From positions 96,001 through 160,000 of IMG/VR virus record IMGVR_UViG_3300027806_000001: a stretch of DNA of 64,000 nt. One strand, written 5' to 3'. Below are positions 2,953-22,554 of the stretch, piece by piece. The DNA comes from a virus. The translations under genes were made by a program, and so were the position numbers. The notes below the pieces were generated by a model. It was given only the letters and a program-made list of their open reading frames with translations, was not told the DNA's origin and ran no database searches. The stretch's first letter is position 1; each line of letters begins with the position of its first letter.

Positions 2953-3525
2953 TCAACCGCCTGAATTGTTGTTCTCGAACGGACGCCAGTCCCAGTCAAC
3001 CGGACGGTTGCCTTGCTCGTAGTACGGCTTGGGAGCCTCTCCGCCGAACATGGAGTCCCACGCCGTGCGGTTGATGGCCGCATCGGCCACGGCGCCCTGG
3101 TGGACCAGCTGCTCGACCGTTCCCTTGTGCTCGGGACTCTTGCTGAGCGTCTGTGCGGCGGTGCCGTACTGCTCGGGATTGTCGAAGTACTGCGCCTCGT
3201 CTGCAAGGCGCGAGTTGACGAAGTAGCGGCCGCCGAGGCCAAGACCAAGGCCGGCCAGGGCTCCGATGCCTCCAAGGCCCGACTCGCCGCGGCGACGGCC
3301 GCGCAGGCGGTCCAGGATGGAGCCGACGCCGTAGCCCAGCAGGGCGCCGCCGGCGCCGTAGAGCAGGTTGTTGCCCAGGCCGCTGTCGGCTCCGAACGGA
3401 TTGACGAATCCGTGCAGGTCCCTGGCGTTCCACTGGCCAGGCGCAGCCGCAGCGTAGTAGGGCGTGTCCGCCTGCTTGCTCTCGGTTTCGGCCCGCTTCT
3501 GCATGTGGTGGGAGTAGTAGGCCAT
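2953..3525 (-). CDS. Hypothetical probable virion protein with Gly-zipper segments
   Basis: MQKRAETESKQA motifs; GAGGALLGYGVG-type hydrophobic Gly segments. Confidence 0.55.
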   Translation of the reverse strand: MAYYSHHMQKRAETESKQADTPYYAAAAPGQWNARDLHGFVNPFGADSGLGNNLLYGAGGALLGYGVGSILDRLRGRRRGESGLGGIGALAGLGLGLGGRYFVNSRLADEAQYFDNPEQYGTAAQTLSKSPEHKGTVEQLVHQGAVADAAINRTAWDSMFGGEAPKPYYEQGNRPVDWDWRPFENNNSGG

Positions 3526-3527
3526 GG

Positions 3528-3923
3528 TCAGGATTCCTTGGGGCTGCAGGAAATGCGCATTGTATCAAGGTCGCCCAGGTACTGGGGCAGCTCCTCGGCG
3601 GGGATGGTCAGGTTGACGGCGTACTTGATCCAGGAGATCCAGTTCTCCTTCGCGGGTATGAACTCCGACTCCTCGGTGAACTGGCACCAGCCGCGGCTCT
3701 GCCACTTGACCAGCACGTCGTTCAGCTTGTTGTACTCCTCGAGGTCCTCTTCGTTCCACAGGCGGAACTGCCGGCTGCGGAAGAAGGGAATCTCCTGGGG
3801 CAGCGACTGGGGAGGATCGGTCGGCTTGATGATCGGCCGGACGGATCCCATGAAGGGCGCCCCGTCGCCGAGCTGCGAGAAGCCTCCGAGCATGATGCTG
3901 GCGGGTCCCAGGGGGTCGCTCAC
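3528..3923 (-). CDS. Hypothetical protein
   Basis: Natural amino-acid composition; GTG start overlaps the upstream stop. Confidence 0.6.
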   Translation of the reverse strand: MSDPLGPASIMLGGFSQLGDGAPFMGSVRPIIKPTDPPQSLPQEIPFFRSRQFRLWNEEDLEEYNKLNDVLVKWQSRGWCQFTEESEFIPAKENWISWIKYAVNLTIPAEELPQYLGDLDTMRISCSPKES

Positions 3924-4231
3924 TTGGATTCTCCCTTGGCCTTTTCCTTGGCCTTTTCCTTAGCCTTCTCGCCCAGGTCCAAGGCCCTGGCGTTGCCCTC
4001 GGCCGTCCTCTTGGCGATGTCCTCCGGGGTGGTCGGCGCATCGGGCGCCGCGTCCCACTGCTGCTTGGCCTTTGCGGATCCGTAGCCCAAGCCTCCGCCC
4101 AGGCCGGCGCCTCCCAGGCCCATCATGACCGCGGCCAGCTCGTCGTTCGGCTTGACCAGCTTGCCGAGGCCGTAGCCACTGGTGCCGCCGATGCCTGCGC
4201 CGAGCAGGGCCCAGAGCAGTTCCTGGTTCAT
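3920..4231 (-). CDS. Small Gly-zipper membrane-type protein
   Basis: Two LGAGIGG / LGGAGLGGG segments; coupled start/stop. Confidence 0.6.
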   Translation of the reverse strand: MNQELLWALLGAGIGGTSGYGLGKLVKPNDELAAVMMGLGGAGLGGGLGYGSAKAKQQWDAAPDAPTTPEDIAKRTAEGNARALDLGEKAKEKAKEKAKGESK

Positions 4232-4617
4232 GCCAGTCCCTTTCGAACCTCGTTGGTCGCCTGGCGGTACTTGGCCAGCAGGTGCAGCTTCTTGGCCTCG
4301 TCGGCCTCCGAGAACTCGGGCAGGATCTGGCCCTCGGGATCGACCACGTCGGTGCCCTTGTTGTACATCCAGTTGGCGCCGGCTCCGGCGATGCCGCCGC
4401 CCACGAGGCCCAGCGCGGCCAGGGTCAGCGCCAGGTTGACGGCGCCCTGTCCAGTGTTGACGGCCTTCTCGCCTGCGCCGAACGTCTTGGAGGCCACGTC
4501 GGAGACGGCGTCAAAGAATCCCTGCTTGCACATGAGCAGTTCCGACGGAGTGAATCCCAGCTCGGCCGCCCTGGTGCAGAACCCGACCTTGAACCGCATT
4601 TTCGCTGCTTCGTCCAT
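4228..4617 (-). CDS. Hypothetical probable virion protein
   Basis: FKVGFCTRAAELG..CKQGFFD N-terminus; one hydrophobic segment; TAGACT-N6-ATG upstream. Confidence 0.6.
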   Translation of the reverse strand: MDEAAKMRFKVGFCTRAAELGFTPSELLMCKQGFFDAVSDVASKTFGAGEKAVNTGQGAVNLALTLAALGLVGGGIAGAGANWMYNKGTDVVDPEGQILPEFSEADEAKKLHLLAKYRQATNEVRKGLA

Positions 4618-4648: not shown

Positions 4649-5860
4649 TCAAATGCCGAGTTTTCCAAGGTTGATGAGAGTGCCTAGCGCGGCGCCGGTG
4701 CCTTGCATGACGCGCTGCTCGGTCGGGCTGATGTTCATGAAGAGGCCGATGCCCTTGGCGGCCACTGTGCCTGCCAGCGCTCCGGCCCCAGCGCCGACCG
4801 CGGCATGCGCCACGTCCCGCACGGTGAACCACGGCTTGTCCGGCCGGGCCCGGCCCGCGCTGTTCATCAGGCCCAGCGCCTGGGCGTAGGTGATCTGGCC
4901 GTCCTGCCACTGCTCGGCCAGAGTGTCGGCCAGGTGCGCCTTGGAGAGCTGCAGGCTCAGGGGGATGGCGGAGTTGGCCTTGACGGTGTGCTCCGGCTCC
5001 GGGTCGCCCGGCACCACGGCGTTGCGGTTGATCCTGGCTATGGTGGCCCGGGACCTGGCGGCCTGGTCGGCCTGCATCTCCGGGGTGTAGTCCTCGTTCT
5101 TGACGGCGCCCAGCCTCGAGAGATCGGACACCGTGCCAGGGAAGGTGGCCAGCCATGGGGCGCTCATGCCGGCCAGCACGGCCAGCGCGCCCAGCGCCTT
5201 GCCCTTGCGCTGGAACCTCTCGGGGAAGAAGTACTGCAGGGCCGGCACCGCGGCCAGGCCCAGGGCGGACAGTCCCGCCCCGGTCACCACGTTGCCGATG
5301 CGCCTCTGGGCGTCGGCCGAGTACTGGCCCTCTCCGTACCAGGCGCCGGGGGAGTACCCCAGGTACTTCTGCAGGTCGCCCACGGTCGCGCCCTGCTTCA
5401 TGCCCGGCTGAGCCTGGGGCTGCGCCTTGCGAGCCTGGAACTCCCTGGTGGCCTTGAACATGTCGCGCATGGGGTCGGCGGCCGGGGCGGCCGCGGCGTC
5501 GCCCTCGGGCTTGGCCTTCAGAGTGTCGTTGGTCAGCTTGCCCTTGAGCCTGGAGGTGGGCCTGGTCATCTTTGAGACGGTGCCGCCCGGGGTCGGCATG
5601 CCGAAGCCCGCCCCGATCGCGGCGGGAGCCGCGGCCTTGACCCTGGACTCCAGCTCCAGGCCATGCACCACCTCGCGCGGGACGTGGATGCGGAACCCGG
5701 TGGGCTGGTGGGTCAGCCCCACGATGCCGCCCTGCTCGGAGTCGATGTAGAACTCCGCGGGAGCCTGGCGCACCAGCTGGTTGACCAGCGAGTGCTTGGC
5801 GCCGTACTGCCGCACGTCGGAGTAGCCCTTGGCCTGCTTGAGGTCCGAGACGTTCGCCAT
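4649..5860 (-). CDS. Probable virion protein with several K-x-A/G motifs
   Basis: Start trimmed to MANVSDLKQA after SD GAGG; KQA, KAA, KQG, KAN motifs; hydrophobic segments. Confidence 0.6.
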   Translation of the reverse strand: MANVSDLKQAKGYSDVRQYGAKHSLVNQLVRQAPAEFYIDSEQGGIVGLTHQPTGFRIHVPREVVHGLELESRVKAAAPAAIGAGFGMPTPGGTVSKMTRPTSRLKGKLTNDTLKAKPEGDAAAAPAADPMRDMFKATREFQARKAQPQAQPGMKQGATVGDLQKYLGYSPGAWYGEGQYSADAQRRIGNVVTGAGLSALGLAAVPALQYFFPERFQRKGKALGALAVLAGMSAPWLATFPGTVSDLSRLGAVKNEDYTPEMQADQAARSRATIARINRNAVVPGDPEPEHTVKANSAIPLSLQLSKAHLADTLAEQWQDGQITYAQALGLMNSAGRARPDKPWFTVRDVAHAAVGAGAGALAGTVAAKGIGLFMNISPTEQRVMQGTGAALGTLINLGKLGI

Positions 5861-5861
5861 G

Positions 5862-7769
5862 TCAGTTGGTCCTCGTGGCGTAGTTCCCGTAGGGGGACCG
5901 GCCCTGGTCAGGTGGTCCAAGGACGGCCTGCAGCAGGGCGGGATCGTTCAGCAGCATCGTCATCGTGGCCGGATCGACCGCCTGGCTCAGCCTTCTGGAG
6001 GCATCGACGGTAGGCGCAGGGGACTGCAGAGCTTCCTCCCGGCTCCTGTACCAGTTGGCCAGGGTCTGGTAGGCCTGGGGATCGGAAGCGGCCAGCTCGC
6101 CAAGTTCCGCCTGGGTGCGGGAGTTCTCCGGAATCGCTCCGTAGATCGAGTCCCTGAGTTCCGGACTGACCCTCTGCAGCACATCCATGACGGCCTGCGG
6201 CGACTGGCCCAGGCCCACCAGCCTCTGGGTCAGTTCGGAGCCCAGGCCCTGCCGGTTCAAGGCTGCCTGCTCGCGGTCGAACTCGGCCCTGGCCTTGCGC
6301 TGGGAGTAGGTCTCGAGCCCCTTGAACGGAGCCGAGGCCTCCATGGCGCCGGTGGCCAGGCGGACAAATGCGTTGTCCGGAATGTCCTGCTCGAGCTGAG
6401 AGCGGATCACGTCGAGTTCCTTGGTGTCGGGATAGCTGACGTTGCCGTACTGATCCACGGGAACCCCCTGTTCGGTCGCGGATCGCAGCACATTCTCCCG
6501 GAGAGGGGCTTTGGAGAGAAGGGAGGCGGGAATGGTAAAGGCCTGCGCGGTGTTCGGGAGGCCGGTCATGCGCTGGGCCGGACCCACGGCGAGCTCCCTT
6601 GCGACTTCGCCAAAGGACGCGTTCGGATTGTCGCCCAGCAGCTCGCCTGCCGAGGAGAGGCCTGCCTCCGCACCCTGGGCGAAGTTGCCCAACCCCCAGC
6701 CGCGGCCCAGGGATCCTAAGGCGAACTGCGTCAGTTGACCCGGCACCGTCGCCGTCGCCCCGGAGCCGGAGAGGACTGCCGGAGCCATCCTGGAGCCGGA
6801 GATGGACCAGAGGGGATTGAGCGCGCTGCCGAAGGCGTTGAAGACTCCCTTGGCCCCTTGTTCACCGAACCCTGCAACCGTGCGCAAGGCGCCGGGGGAG
6901 AGCTTGGAGGAGAACTGAGGCAAGGCGAACGCCCCCTCGTACAAAGCCTTGGGGACGACCCTGCCTGCGGAGCTGACCGCCTGGCCTGCCCGGGCGACGA
7001 CCGGAGCCACCTTGGCCGGCACCGCGGACATGATTTTGCCTCCGGCGGCGGTGACGAGGTTGCCTGCCCGGGATGCCAAAGAGGGCAGCACCGCCTTGGT
7101 TGCTCCGGCTCTGCCGGCGTTGGCGACAAGGGCGGCGTTTCCCTGCCCGCCGGTGGCTGCCGCGGTCAGGGCGTGGGCTCCTGTAGCAAGTGAGGTGCCT
7201 GCCCAGTTCTGCAAGGAATTACGCGCGAGCACGGGATCCCGCTCCATGGCGTCGTACATCAGGAAGGAGTTGACGCCCGCCTTGCCTGCGTCGGGCAGGT
7301 ATTTGGTGTAGTAGGCGCCCTGATCCTCCAGGCCTTCCTGGACGGCCTGCTGGTTGTCTGTCATGTAGTTGTAGGCGATGCCTGGCCAGCTCATGTTCCA
7401 CGCCGCGCTGGCGTACGGCTGCACGGTGTCCCGCCAGAACTCCCTTGGCCTCGCGTTCCTGACGTAGGCCGGAGGCAGCAGGTCCTCCTCGGTCATCCTG
7501 CGGCCCATGATCGGAACGACCGCCGGCACGGCCTGACGACCAGGCTGATCGTAGATGCCGCCGGCGGCCCGGGAGCTGGACGCGGCGCCGGGCCGCGGCT
7601 CAGGCAGGGACGCCCCCACCGGTTCCGGTTGCCGAGTCCTTGCGTTCGACTGGACGCGGCCTGCCGGCGACATCATGCCCATCAGGTTCTGGTTCTGGAT
7701 GCTCTCCAGGGAGTTGCCGGGACCTGGGCCCTGCGCTGACTTGACGTGATGGTCGTATGGCTTGGGCAT
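5862..7769 (-). CDS. Large Ala/Gly-rich protein, possibly an ejected or internal virion protein
   Basis: 635-aa ORF in the structural cluster; no recognisable catalytic motif. Confidence 0.5.
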   Translation of the reverse strand: MPKPYDHHVKSAQGPGPGNSLESIQNQNLMGMMSPAGRVQSNARTRQPEPVGASLPEPRPGAASSSRAAGGIYDQPGRQAVPAVVPIMGRRMTEEDLLPPAYVRNARPREFWRDTVQPYASAAWNMSWPGIAYNYMTDNQQAVQEGLEDQGAYYTKYLPDAGKAGVNSFLMYDAMERDPVLARNSLQNWAGTSLATGAHALTAAATGGQGNAALVANAGRAGATKAVLPSLASRAGNLVTAAGGKIMSAVPAKVAPVVARAGQAVSSAGRVVPKALYEGAFALPQFSSKLSPGALRTVAGFGEQGAKGVFNAFGSALNPLWSISGSRMAPAVLSGSGATATVPGQLTQFALGSLGRGWGLGNFAQGAEAGLSSAGELLGDNPNASFGEVARELAVGPAQRMTGLPNTAQAFTIPASLLSKAPLRENVLRSATEQGVPVDQYGNVSYPDTKELDVIRSQLEQDIPDNAFVRLATGAMEASAPFKGLETYSQRKARAEFDREQAALNRQGLGSELTQRLVGLGQSPQAVMDVLQRVSPELRDSIYGAIPENSRTQAELGELAASDPQAYQTLANWYRSREEALQSPAPTVDASRRLSQAVDPATMTMLLNDPALLQAVLGPPDQGRSPYGNYATRTN

Positions 7770-7877: not shown

Positions 7878-8591
7878 ATGAACACGCGCGTCGACTACAG
7901 CCCCCTTCGCCAACATCTCATGGAGAAGACGGCCTTCCTGGGCGATCTGCTTGGATCAAGCAAGTACGAGCCGCAGATTCTGGAGGACGTACCGTCGATT
8001 GACGACTTCGATCCTATGACCCAGGACTACGAGCAGGCCCTGGACAAATACTGGAAGAGCCTGGGCTACTCGGACGTGCGGCGGCACGACTACGCCCCAT
8101 CAGGAACTCCGTACACCATGAAGGGCCCCGACGGCCGCTACTACGAGGCCGCCATGAACGAGGACCTGGGCAAGTGGGAGCTGACTCCCATGGGCGGTCC
8201 TCAGCACGACATGGCCGAGCACCCCGACGATCTGCCGGATACCTACAACCGCAAGGGTCCGAGCCTGGGCAGGGACAAGAACTCCATGGACTACAGCCTC
8301 CTTCGCCAGCACCTCATGGAGAAGATCGCAGCCTCTCCGGCCTGGACCAGGGCCGAGGGCAAGAACCCCGAGGGCGGCCTCAACGCCAAGGGCCGGGCCA
8401 GCTACAAGGCGCAGACGGGCGGCACCCTGCGTCCGCCGGTCACCAAGGATCGCGCCGACAAGAGCCCCAAGGACGCCAAGCGCCGGGCCAGCTTCTGCGC
8501 TCGAAGCGCAGGCCAGATGAAGATGTGGCCGGAGGCCGCCAAGGATCCGGAGAGTAGGCTCAGGAAGGCCCGCCGGGCCTGGGACTGCTGA
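7878..8591 (+). CDS. Two-module protein ending in a conserved phage domain (AWTRxEGKNPxGGLN...SFCAR...WDC)
   Basis: C-terminal motif set recalled from many phage proteins; duplicated DYSxLRQHLMEKxA leader; convergent terminator follows. Confidence 0.75.
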   Translation: MNTRVDYSPLRQHLMEKTAFLGDLLGSSKYEPQILEDVPSIDDFDPMTQDYEQALDKYWKSLGYSDVRRHDYAPSGTPYTMKGPDGRYYEAAMNEDLGKWELTPMGGPQHDMAEHPDDLPDTYNRKGPSLGRDKNSMDYSLLRQHLMEKIAASPAWTRAEGKNPEGGLNAKGRASYKAQTGGTLRPPVTKDRADKSPKDAKRRASFCARSAGQMKMWPEAAKDPESRLRKARRAWDC

Positions 8592-20306: not shown

Positions 20307-20861
20307 TCATGCCTTGACGTCGATCACGGGATCCTTGAGCCGCTGCTCGTTGATCCACTCGATCAGCTTCCTGGCCAGGATGTCGAATTCGCCGAGCTCG
20401 ATGTCCTCGAACTCCGGGGTACTCAAGGCCGGCCAGTGGCCATAGGTGCGGACTGCCCGCCGGAAGGCCACGGCCTTCACCCCTGCGGCCACGTCGTGGG
20501 CCAGATCCCGCAACGTGTCCTTGCGGTAGGTCTCGGCCTGGGTGGGAGAGTCGCAGCACCTGTCGCCCCTGTCCATGTTCTCGAGATCCACCTTGATCTC
20601 CAAGGCCGCGCCCTGCAGCCCCTTCTTCCAGGCGCCCGGCCAGATCTCCATGGCCGCAGAGGGCTCGGCCGGGGGCGGCCAGGTCATCTCGGGCCTGCGC
20701 TGCTCCAGAGGCAGCGCCTCCTCCTGGGCCAGGAGGGTCAGGACCCAGCTGGCTGCCCGGCGGGCCTCCTGCTCGTCCTCTAGGTAGACGGCCAGGGCCT
20801 GGTTGGCCTGGGCCGGGGTGCGTCGAGTCGACCTGGGGGCCATTGGTTGACGTTCTCTCAT
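20307..20861 (-). CDS. Hypothetical protein
   Basis: SD AAGGA; natural composition. Confidence 0.6.
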   Translation of the reverse strand: MRERQPMAPRSTRRTPAQANQALAVYLEDEQEARRAASWVLTLLAQEEALPLEQRRPEMTWPPPAEPSAAMEIWPGAWKKGLQGAALEIKVDLENMDRGDRCCDSPTQAETYRKDTLRDLAHDVAAGVKAVAFRRAVRTYGHWPALSTPEFEDIELGEFDILARKLIEWINEQRLKDPVIDVKA

Positions 20862-20938
20862 CGTTTCCTTCCTTTTCTCCTGGGTTGCGCCAGGTGTTGA
20901 GTGGACCGGGTGGGATTCGAACCCACGCCTTATCGATT

Positions 20939-21706
20939 CAGGTTTGTGTGACTTTAGTCACTCCCTGGACCATCTCATCGCCTTGGCCTTGAAGGGCTTT
21001 AGGCGTCGGACGCTGACTCCGGTAATTAAGAGGACTTCACCTCTCCGGTGGTCTCTGCACCTTCCGCAGGTGTACCTGCGGCTTGGCTCAGGATTGCCTT
21101 GTGGAGGCGGTAGTGCCGCATCCATTTCCTTACGGCGTTGTCGCTCACGCCGTATTTTCTACCTATGGCAAGAAGGGAGTTTTCAGCAAGATCCTGTGTT
21201 AGATCATGTTTGCTGGGCCTTCTTGATCGGGAGGAGATGGCTTGTTTTCGGCACTGCTCTGAACATGTGGCCTTTTGGGCTCCCTGCAGGGTGGCTTCGC
21301 AGCCTTCACAATATTCAGCCTTTTTCCATTTAGGTTTCCCTGAATTCATCCGATTCGCACCCTCAGCTTTCGCTGAGGGGGCACCGCACGACAGCCAATG
21401 CTCGATCCTGGAATGCTGACCTCTGGTAAGCACCAGCAGGTTAGACAGGCGGTTGTTTGCCTTGTCCCCATCCAGATGATGGGTGACTTCGTCCTCCGTC
21501 AAAGGCCTCTCAAGTGACTGTTCCACCACCAGGATATGCTCGTACACATACCCCTTCCAGTTACTCGAGGTCATTGCAGAAGGATGATCTGGACGGTACA
21601 ACACCCTGTAGCCATTCAAGATTCGAGCTGACTTGTCGCCCATGCTGTGTTCTCCTAAGGGCTGCATTATAGCAGCCTCTCATTTGAACCTAGGTCATGG
21701 GTGCAG
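20939..21706 (-). mobile_element. Group I intron (Azoarcus tRNA-Ile-like, IC3) inserted immediately after the CAU anticodon
   Basis: Core elements GAATTCAGGGAAACCTAA, GGCAATCCTGAGCCAAGC, GAAGGTGCAGAGAC; 3' end CCAGGGAGTGACTAAAGTCACACAAACCTG ending in omega-G; guide GTGCGGTG can pair CAU|CUGCAC with a U.G pair. Confidence 0.9.
21026..21643 (-). CDS. Intron-encoded HNH homing endonuclease with Cys-rich zinc-finger-like and HTH modules
   Basis: YVYEHILV...EVTHHLDGDKANNRLSNL (HNH); CxxC-x12-CxxxC; AIGRKYGVSDNAVRKWM (HTH); SD AGGAG and TGCTATAAT inside the intron. Confidence 0.88.
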   Translation of the reverse strand: MGDKSARILNGYRVLYRPDHPSAMTSSNWKGYVYEHILVVEQSLERPLTEDEVTHHLDGDKANNRLSNLLVLTRGQHSRIEHWLSCGAPSAKAEGANRMNSGKPKWKKAEYCEGCEATLQGAQKATCSEQCRKQAISSRSRRPSKHDLTQDLAENSLLAIGRKYGVSDNAVRKWMRHYRLHKAILSQAAGTPAEGAETTGEVKSS

Positions 21707-21743
21707 ATGAGTCGACGGCTCTGGACCGCTGAGCTACCAGTCC

Positions 21744-21780
21744 GAAAAAAGAGGCCAGGCGGGTTTGACCCCGCCTGGCC
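21744..21780 (-). terminator. Intrinsic terminator between the ncRNA candidate and the tRNA
   Basis: 11-bp stem GGCCAGGCGGG/CCCGCCTGGCC followed by TCTTTTTT. Confidence 0.75.
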
Positions 21781-21799
21781 CTTGCATGTATCAATTACG

Positions 21800-22307
21800 C
21801 TAGCTCCCCTGGACCCGGACATGCAGCCGGCCAGGATCACTCTACGCGACATGCCACGCGCTTTCCATGGCATGAAGGGGGTCGAGGGGAGAATCCAGCC
21901 TTACCCCCTCTCTGTAGGCCCACCCCGAGGGGGCCTGAGCTGCGCCATGGTAGCTGGGCGTACCATGCGCTGAGGCTGCTCAGCCTGCGCTTGCTCCGCA
22001 ATGAAGGACGGCCGGCGCTTTGCCAACCCTGCCGTCCGCTGGCGCCGGTTTGCACCTGGAGAGTCCCAGGTGCGCTCCCCGGCCGGGGAGCCCGGCATCC
22101 AGCCGCGAGAAGAGCAGGGCGGCCCGGGTGGAGCCGCCCTGCCCGATTGCAGGACTCCCAGGCGACATTCGCCTGGGTGCCATATTAGCTCGCCTGGTCA
22201 TTTGCCAGGCTGGTTTCACGCGGTCGCCGCCCTGCCAGCGCCGCAACCGGAGTCCCTGGGGTGCAGGGGCTCGCGGGTTATCCGTGCGTCCGAATGATCG
22301 GAGCTAG
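21800..22307 (-). ncRNA. Candidate large (~510 nt) structured non-coding RNA, family unassigned
   Basis: Bounded by a promoter and a terminator; ends pair (CTAGCTCC/GGAGCTAG); more than ten back-to-back hairpins; no credible ORF. Confidence 0.7.
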
Positions 22308-22309
22308 TA

Positions 22310-22339
22310 ATACTACCCCGAATGACGTCCTTGTTTAGC
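22310..22339 (-). promoter_or_regulatory. GCTAAA-N18-TAGTAT promoter of the ncRNA candidate
   Basis: Exact spacing match; predicted start about 22303. Confidence 0.75.
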
Positions 22340-22341
22340 CG

Positions 22342-22554
22342 TCAGGAAAGGTCGTCCAGGATGTCGTCGGGGTCGTCCTGGACGGGCGGCAGGGGCTCCG
22401 GCCTGCGGCTGCGGCGCCCGGAGTGCTGGCCCTTGGGCCTTTCCATGGCCGAGGACCAGGCGCGCTGCGCCCGCTCGTACTCGTCCGGCCCGATGTAGGC
22501 CGAACTGACGATGTCCACGTAGGAGAATCCCGCTTCCTTCCGGCGCCTGCCCAT
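22342..22554 (-). CDS. Small hypothetical protein
   Basis: Has its own promoter and SD GGAGG. Confidence 0.55.
   Translation of the reverse strand: MGRRRKEAGFSYVDIVSSAYIGPDEYERAQRAWSSAMERPKGQHSGRRSRRPEPLPPVQDDPDDILDDLS

Follow-up and report, generated by a model that had tools for sequence, protein, structure and literature searches.

The 64,000-nucleotide stretch of DNA analysed here (the window) covers positions 96,001 to 160,000 of the IMG/VR virus record IMGVR_UViG_3300027806_000001, which is complete at 183,468 bp and has terminal repeats. On its minus strand, a transfer RNA gene, tRNA(CAU), is interrupted by a group I intron of 768 nucleotides (nt), and the single open reading frame (ORF) of the intron, which encodes an HNH endonuclease, is distributed over two peripheral loops of the ribozyme. 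The nuclease module is located in L1, a zinc ribbon and a helix-turn-helix (HTH) are located in L5, and the frame passes from one loop to the other through the catalytic core, so that the same nucleotides serve the ribozyme and the protein linker. This double use had been proposed in a first-pass annotation of the sequence and is borne out by covarying helices and by the lack of codon periodicity in the core stretches. We place a probability of roughly 0.8 on the following explanation as a whole: a phage tRNA(CAU) gene holds, at the Azoarcus-type site, a mobile intron with one HNH-zinc ribbon-HTH homing endonuclease gene spread over L1 and L5.

ARAGORN in its default mode called no tRNA in the window. 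With introns allowed, the program reports a gene at 20901-21743 with a 768-nt intron, and the joined exons (21743-21707 and 20938-20901) give a 75-nt tRNA(cat). Manual reading outward from the intron also finds a tRNA half on each flank, with ...GUCGACUCAU before the intron and AAUCGAU followed by the T arm after it. The gene is one of two tRNA genes in the complete 183-kb phage genome. The Rfam family RF00028 matches positions 21407-20946 on the minus strand (55.9 bits; cut-off 50), and the alignment has an insertion of about 230 nt in L5; in 10 homologous loci the scores are 62-93 bits. In every close homologue that was examined, the layout is the same, with a tRNA(CAU) gene interrupted after CTCAT and an RF00028 match that starts about 230 nt into the ORF, and it is common to more than 100 metagenomic relatives and to at least about 120 protein clusters. 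A set of 14 diverse homologous introns of 704-782 nt, taken with their exons, was used to examine the junctions and the structure. CUCAU precedes and AA follows the intron in all 14, which puts the intron immediately after anticodon base 36, ahead of position 37. A G, the omega position, stands before the AA of the 3' exon at the end of every homologous intron, and the U at position -1 forms a U-G wobble with the internal guide in 14 of 14, with covariation (C-G to A-U) at the adjoining pair.

The secondary structure was derived from the window and counted on the same 14 introns. All 70 proposed helix pairs are canonical in the window, and across the set 91.7% of the cells are paired, compared with 73% in shuffles and 35-43% when the partners are slid. 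Both sides have changed at 51 of the 70 pairs, and not one of 500 shuffles was as good. P1 is 100% paired and shows a compensatory change from C-G to A-U at intron position +1 in one intron (L092). The helices that span the inserts also carry compensatory changes, with pairing of 98% for P3, 100% for P4, and 96% and 88% for P5, and pairing reaches 100% in P6a, P7 and the outer part of P8. All eight pairs of P2 have changes on both sides; its lower score in the alignment arises because MAFFT slips, and when it is folded singly, a GAAA-capped hairpin forms with different stems in 14 of 14. The ribozyme structure is therefore maintained by compensatory change. Two further pairings for P1 were considered and rejected. 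An extended P1 of the window (GCAC with GUGC) is not conserved in relatives, and therefore only four P1 pairs are claimed. An alternative P1 through AUGAG (21683-21679) in the leader, with a U-A pair at the splice site, depends on a motif that is not conserved, and three of the introns (L092, L095 and L100) have no leader.

When the ORF is placed on this structure (Table 1), the outline of the first-pass annotation is largely recovered. Its P1-loop insertion of about 310 nt with the HNH module measures 320 nt (21705-21386) and includes, as had been noted, a Shine-Dalgarno sequence (SD), which is 8 nt before the ATG. Its passage of the frame through the guide, P2, P3 and P4 agrees with helices that are now placed, canonical at every pair and covarying, and its insertion of about 230 nt in P5 with the Cys-rich and HTH modules measures 221 nt. 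Between the two insertions, the ORF reads 60 nt of core, comprising the guide, P2, P3, P4 and P5, as residues GAPSAKAEGANRMNSGKPKW. Return of the frame to the core through P5', P4', P6 and P7 also holds. The stop codon, however, is not strictly near P8, as the annotation had it, but in a P7.1-like hairpin between P7 and P3', and the 3' part of the intron (20939-21012, with P3', P8, the P7 3' strand and P9.0/P9) is noncoding. An in-frame ATG is found further upstream at 21667 (a frame of 213 codons, 21667-21026) and has no SD, and those of the 417 ORF homologues that were aligned begin near the start at 21643. The likely start is therefore ATG 21643, for a protein of 205 residues.

Table 1. Features of the split tRNA(CAU) gene, its group I intron and the endonuclease ORF, in window coordinates
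Feature	Coordinates	Strand	Remarks
tRNA(CAU) 5' exon	21707..21743	-	Ends ...CUCAU; U36 is the last nt before the 5' splice site; ARAGORN on joined exons
Group I intron, 768 nt	20939..21706	-	Omega-G at 20939; Rfam RF00028, 55.9 bits; 70 pairs, all canonical in the window
tRNA(CAU) 3' exon	20901..20938	-	AA, anticodon-stem 3' strand, T arm, acceptor; joined-exon fold
Endonuclease ORF	21026..21643	-	205 codons from ATG 21643, stop TAA 21028-21026; SD AGGAG 21656-21652
L1 insertion, 320 nt	21386..21705	-	Leader with two hairpins, Shine-Dalgarno, HNH module; L1 short in ORF-less relatives
HNH nuclease motif	21407..21538	-	Residues 44-87 of the 213-residue translation; Pfam HNH_3
Internal guide GGUG (3' strand of P1)	21382..21385	-	Pairs with exon CAU and intron nt +1; encoded as Gly-Ala
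P2 hairpin, GAAA tetraloop	21360..21379	-	Within ORF, residues PSAKAEG
P3, J3/4, P4, J4/5, P5 5' strands	21326..21353	-	Within ORF, residues NRMNSGKPKW; partners long-range
P3	21353-21347 with 21012-21006	-	
P4	21343-21338 with 21093-21088	-	
P5	21334-21326 with 21104-21097	-	
L5 insertion, 221 nt	21105..21325	-	Cys4 zinc ribbon and HTH; L5 short in ORF-less relatives
Cys4 zinc ribbon (C120, C123, C135, C139)	21310-21251	-	Inside L5 insertion
Three-helix HTH	about 21211-21113	-	Inside L5 insertion
P5', J5/4, P4', P6/P6a, P7 5' strand	21049..21104	-	C-terminal tail (KAILSQAAGTPAEGAET)
P6/P6a	21087-21059	-	
P7	21053-21049 with 20972-20968	-	Compensatory U-A to C-G change in the window
P7.1-like hairpin between P7 and P3'	21019..21048	-	Conserved UUAAU contains ORF stop 21028-21026; helices 10-12 covary
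P8	21005-20979	-	Noncoding
P9.0/P9, UAAA loop	20967-20939	-	Noncoding

HNH_3 (PF13392) matches the ORF protein at 31.6 bits (cut-off 24.8; E 1.2e-7). In an alignment of 60 homologues, residues E60, H63, H64, N72, N76 and H85 are invariant, as are C120, C123 and C135 of the zinc ribbon, and C139 is present in at least 90%. Pairwise identity at codon positions 1, 2 and 3 is.60,.74 and.39 in the HNH module and.56,.63 and.36 in the zinc ribbon-HTH module, and this variation at the third position indicates selection at the protein level. The core-embedded stretches, at.59/.66/.61 and.68/.71/.70, have no periodicity, which indicates constraint at the RNA level. Both protein modules are thus maintained by protein-level selection, and the fall in identity between positions 2 and 3 of the C-terminal module, together with its conserved Cys columns, argues that this half is translated, as the first-pass annotation had assumed. 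Beyond the core stretch, the first in-frame methionine of the window ORF is M183, inside the HTH. Given that the L5 module is conserved although it lacks its own start codon, ribosomes appear to read through the core, and to judge from the sequence, the DNA-binding half must be made only by ribosomes that cross it. An AlphaFold model built from the 60-homologue alignment has a mean predicted local distance difference test (pLDDT) score of 84 and two confident domains, HNH above 90 and zinc ribbon-HTH at about 90; values are low in the core-encoded linker (residues 96-118) and in the tail (residues 191-213, at 56-67). The best solved match from a Foldseek search of the PDB is a weak one to I-HmuI, and a sequence search of solved structures with the ORF protein gave no match. 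Endonucleases in such introns get annotated as ordinary phage genes.

Both insertion points are fixed by three tRNA(CAU) introns (L174, L219 and L175) that contain no ORF and align to both core halves. These introns are 234-241 nt long, match RF00028 at 84-108 bits and are 68-81% identical to the two core halves of the window, but their L1 is 3-6 nt compared with 320 in the window, and their L5 about 8-14 nt compared with 221. The ORF is consequently not contained in a single loop, and the covariance-model placement, with its insertion in L5, agrees with the arrangement first described. The 30-nt P7.1-like hairpin is found in both ORF-carrying and ORF-less members. The same core also occurs in sister introns that have, upstream of P3, unrelated GIY-YIG ORFs (L162 and L171) or a different HNH ORF (L164). 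All of these run on through P3-P7 in the frame used in the window; the GIY-YIG ORFs end at the same P7.1 UAA, and the L164 ORF stops at the corresponding P7.1 position. The sister ORFs occupy 3414-4260 of the oriented L162 and 2328-2982 of L164, and the host genes of these introns are not tRNAs.

After L5, the window ORF reads a further 79 nt, from P5' to P7.1, ending at the P7.1 UAA. Among the 60 homologues, 35 stop at this UAA, 17 stop in L5 just after the HTH, and 8 stop in between. With end points that vary in this way among relatives, the tail is dispensable and appears to have arisen by core creep, the extension of an ORF end into the ribozyme.

Distant homologues of the endonuclease (34-45% identity) are found between intact tRNA genes (L101, L103-L109, L006 and L007), and in cultured phages only free-standing homologues were found (phiKZ gp296, BRkr, PA1C and Psa21, at no more than 41% identity), with no intron-borne relative. 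These proteins and deeper bacterial homologues share a colinear arrangement of HNH, linker, zinc ribbon and HTH, with a variable linker of about 17-29 residues, indicating that the two halves belong to one old protein family architecture. The loci of the free-standing homologues have no RF00028 signal at E up to 1, and no group I signal was seen at the phiKZ gp296 locus. As the same Rfam search missed the L088 intron, the helices of which do align, lack of a match is weak evidence, and free-standing status rests on the intact flanking tRNAs. A tree of 61 proteins was built with the linker and tail columns removed and rooted on the bacterial homologues. All intron-borne proteins are located in one clade of 41, together with several free-standing ones, and only free-standing proteins are found on the deeper branches. 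A constraint that kept the 14 intron-borne rows together as a clade was not rejected (approximately unbiased test, p 0.30). Among representatives at 50% identity, only about 30 of 150 carry the core linker and about 115 of 150 are without it. We therefore consider that the ORF probably had as its ancestor a free-standing endonuclease gene of phage tRNA clusters with the colinear order, and that its tail would have been added by loss of a stop codon. The claim in the first-pass annotation that two separate invasions were fused into one ORF is, as it was worded, unsupported, given that free-standing relatives have the same colinear order. For a colinear gene to straddle a 60-nt core, candidate routes are duplication followed by deletion, or capture of a second C-terminal module in L5 and subsequent loss of the first, and it is conceivable that L5 acquired a related C-terminal module later, as an event of its own.

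Several observations weigh against the explanation that we favour. P1 has only four conserved pairs and must close across 320 nt. A scan for sigma-70-type promoters in window positions 20800-22400 found none. The intron-borne proteins are not resolved as one clade, and the free-standing L096 and L099 nest among them; the direction of change, from free-standing to intron-borne or the reverse, thus rests on the outgroup rooting. For the C-terminal module, identity to every relative falls in a flat range of 0.37-0.49 and is uncorrelated with that of the N-terminal half (rho 0.03). Because this module is almost equally similar to all relatives, the separate comparison of the two halves that had been proposed at the outset could be made but is uninformative on their common descent, which as a unit is parsimonious, not proven. 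Finally, no intermediate with the complete gene in one loop was found among 120 close homologues and the 150 representatives.

The first of three alternatives is an origin by two captures, in which an HNH-only gene entered L1, an unrelated or separately mobile zinc ribbon-HTH gene entered L5, and loss of the HNH stop codon fused the frames through the core. The core frame is open whatever the ORF, as the GIY-YIG (L162/L171) and HNH (L164) ORFs that run from L1 through P3-P7.1 illustrate, so that any in-frame L5 insert would be fused automatically in this intron family, and the C-terminal module is widely shared with different HNH N-terminal domains, without its similarity tracking the N-terminal half. 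However, both modules, in this order and joined by a linker of similar length, are already present in the nearest free-standing relatives (L096, L099, L101, L103-L106 and phiKZ gp296). In addition, neither an HNH-only form with a short L5 nor an L5-only form was seen in the 120 close homologues and 150 representatives, where short matches were contig-end fragments, and within the intron clade the divergence of the two halves co-varies (rho 0.37, p 3e-4). We regard such an origin as unlikely.

A second alternative makes the split layout ancestral for the whole phage clade, with free-standing relatives representing escaped or decayed intron copies and their linkers eroded cores. Escape from an intron does seem to occur, given that L096 and L099 nest in intron-borne lineages (support 95/88 and 91/84). 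L099 moreover retains a P2-like GAPGIERFG stretch, as do L095 and L205, and several free-standing forms retain the guide-encoding Gly-Ala-Pro. Against this, the genes of the deeper branches (L124, L113/L116, L152 and others, with those of the bacterial Solirubrobacterales) stand free, keep the colinear order and span a much wider diversity, most representatives have no core linker, and the deeper free-standing forms give no RF00028 signal at E up to 1, all of which makes an ancestral split improbable. That the locus is a decaying relic, with a ribozyme that no longer splices or an ORF that is untranslated or meaningless run-on beyond the HNH, fits the dispensable run-on past the HTH, but is very hard to reconcile with 70 canonical pairs and compensatory changes family-wide, with an L5 module in which the Cys4 columns and the HTH are conserved, substitutions follow the codon period and the fold is modelled with confidence, and with a tRNA gene that is one of only two in a complete phage genome.

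A mobile intron with one endonuclease gene spread over L1 and L5, the reading that we prefer, can be compared with several known systems. It is of a known kind, a mobile group I intron with an HNH endonuclease, and goes beyond the core creep of ORF ends that has been published. Edgell et al. 2011 (PMC3073962), who use the term core creep, describe overlaps between ORF and ribozyme of 9-81 nt at ORF ends. As in the T4 td intron with I-TevI and the S. lividus large subunit (LSU) intron (PMC3073962), ORF nucleotides here double as ribozyme helices, and the tail of the window ORF, from P5' to P7.1 with variable stops, fits core creep exactly. Unlike core creep, 60 nt of core are located mid-ORF between two conserved functional domains, which loss of a stop codon alone cannot produce. 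In core creep, the whole functional protein is within one peripheral loop; here, the HNH is in L1 and the zinc ribbon and HTH are in L5. I-Ssp6803I of Synechocystis PCC 6803 tRNA-fMet likewise belongs to a group I intron in the anticodon loop of a tRNA(CAU), with its ORF in P1 and the 3' end of the ORF overlapping P1/P2 by 61 nt (PMC3073962). Unlike the window protein, it is a PD-(D/E)XK nuclease encoded whole in one loop with overlap at the ORF end only, whereas the window ORF crosses P3-P5 and enters a second loop that is also coding, and the Synechocystis insertion site is fMet.2Ug, not.5Ug (10.1101/2020.01.27.920355). Williams 2020 (10.1101/2020.01.27.920355) mapped tRNA group I introns, including the class Ile2.5Ug, and noted that long ones "may contain" genes. 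Neither an endonuclease split over two intron loops nor a phage tRNA gene with an HNH-bearing group I intron is reported in the papers that full-text literature searches returned.

The closest likeness in the ribozyme itself is to Azoarcus-type tRNA-Ile2(CAU) introns of subgroup IC3 (class Ile2.5Ug), which share the site after CAU and a GUG guide that pairs with CAU. The likeness extends to GAAA tetraloops in L2 and L9, to CCUAAG/UAUGG-type receptors in P5 and P8, and to the 234-241 nt of the ORF-less relatives. The Azoarcus intron has no ORF, whereas the family of the window is found mainly in large phages and bacteria of the candidate phyla radiation (CPR). Nor is the 30-nt P7.1-like hairpin known from the Azoarcus intron. 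In the protein, I-HmuI from the DNA-polymerase intron of Bacillus phage SPO1 (PDB 1U3E) has a similar modular organization, with an N-terminal HNH nuclease, a C-terminal HTH and extended linkers, but has no significant sequence match to the window protein, and its ORF is in one loop (P8) with a 9-nt overlap. True homologues are phiKZ gp296 and its counterparts in BRkr, PA1C and Psa21 (38-41% identity), which have the same HNH-zinc ribbon-HTH order and adjoin tRNA genes; unlike the window gene, they are outside introns, and no RNA constraint acts on their linker. T4 SegB (PMC2330249) is another free-standing endonuclease of a phage tRNA cluster, differing from the window in being GIY-YIG and outside introns, and such genes drive the inheritance of tRNA regions (PMC2330249).

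Taken together, these features suggest how the element may work. The RNA would self-splice to give the phage tRNA(CAU), and the protein would nick or cut intron-less tRNA(CAU) alleles of co-infecting relatives, with repair copying the intron in. Targets of this type do exist. An uninterrupted 17-nt anticodon arm is present in more than 119 viral contigs, and intron-less tRNA(CAU) alleles are 92-97% identical to both exons in L296 and L223, the former with a neighbouring gene that is 74% identical. Intron-less alleles in relatives fit homing. Within the intron, the 60 nt that hold the 5' strands of the guide, P2, P3, P4 and P5 would have two roles, supplying the 5' half of the ribozyme core and a flexible linker between domains. 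The 79 nt from P5' to P7.1 would be read as a C-terminal tail that the protein can do without, and the UAA at which it stops is fixed by the RNA structure. A single RNA molecule would not be able to fold as a ribozyme while it is being translated, and it is therefore probable that ribosomes read the ORF either on the excised intron or on a transcript with its start inside L1. More tentatively, the 5' core may be an obligatory inter-domain linker, the ribosome having to unfold P1'-P5 and P4'-P7 in a switch between tRNA and endonuclease, and the division between L1 and L5 may have been selected since a pair of loops of about 220-320 nt would fold more readily than a single loop of about 540 nt; we offer this more elaborate version with considerable doubt.

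The leader of the ORF (21706-21644, minus strand) forms two hairpins that covary among 9 of the 14 introns (columns 40-120 of alignment A2). The first, CUGAACC...GGUUCA, directly follows the splice site, and the second presents a TGCTATAAT box (GATAAT/TATAAT) in its loop, just before the SD, which is not clearly sequestered in the leader fold. In the three introns without the leader (L092, L095 and L100), the ORF starts 2-16 nt past the splice site. Of the internal promoter that the first-pass annotation had placed in the P1-loop insertion, at most a putative element, this box is the only sign. Candidate roles for the leader hairpins are a promoter -10 element, a processing site, or translation control. 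Upstream of the tRNA gene, a strong terminator-like hairpin (21752-21781, minus strand; 12 pairs followed by U6) stops 3-4 nt short of the first base of the tRNA, and candidate means of transcribing the tRNA precursor past it are read-through or a promoter other than the sigma-70 type.

Several other RNA features were observed in related contigs. The phage contig L092 contains, about 130 nt downstream of its intron-split tRNA(CAU), a second group I intron in another tRNA-like gene (2359-2547; 189 nt, ORF-less, RF00028 59.4 bits), indicating that one phage can carry two related tRNA introns, with and without endonuclease. Genes for transfer-messenger RNA (tmRNA) are found within a few hundred bases of the endonuclease/tRNA locus in L083 (601-960) and L086 (817-1159), where they are upstream of the split tRNA, and in L106 (2273-2668), where the gene is downstream of a free-standing homologue. 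In the window, the equivalent place (21800-22307) matches no Rfam family, even at E up to 1. Contigs with ORF-less intron relatives also hold Hatchet ribozymes and RAGATH-7-associated or RAGATH-9 RNAs (L161 at 6294-6422, 8346-8458 and 5036-5189; L177 at 1607-1735; L212 at 491-618), and the intron in these three contigs appears, from the sequence, to split a T-arm-like sequence after GGACGAGGGUU, as in tmRNA introns. At the phiKZ locus (L342, NC_004629.1 267482-270964), gp296 has a tRNA of 84-89 nt, annotated as Asn, in its flanks, together with short stretches resembling tRNA halves at locus positions 1280-1310 and about 2090-2125, which may have been left behind when the endonuclease caused tRNA genes to rearrange.

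The textbook view of mobile group I introns is of a ribozyme that carries a selfish gene in a harmless loop. In the phage intron described here, gene and ribozyme interpenetrate, with about 139 nt selected both as RNA and as protein, among them the guide, a tetraloop hairpin and a tetraloop receptor, and a functional protein domain appears to be reachable only via translation of the catalytic core. Introns of this type also conceal tRNA genes from standard finders. If the switch reading that we offer more tentatively above is correct, this would be the first ribozyme and two-domain protein to co-evolve by way of internal sequence common to both, and would provide a natural system in which to test how translation conflicts with RNA folding. 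The layout makes it possible to test the limits to which RNA and protein constraints can be shared, how splicing and translation are separated, and how composite mobile introns arise.

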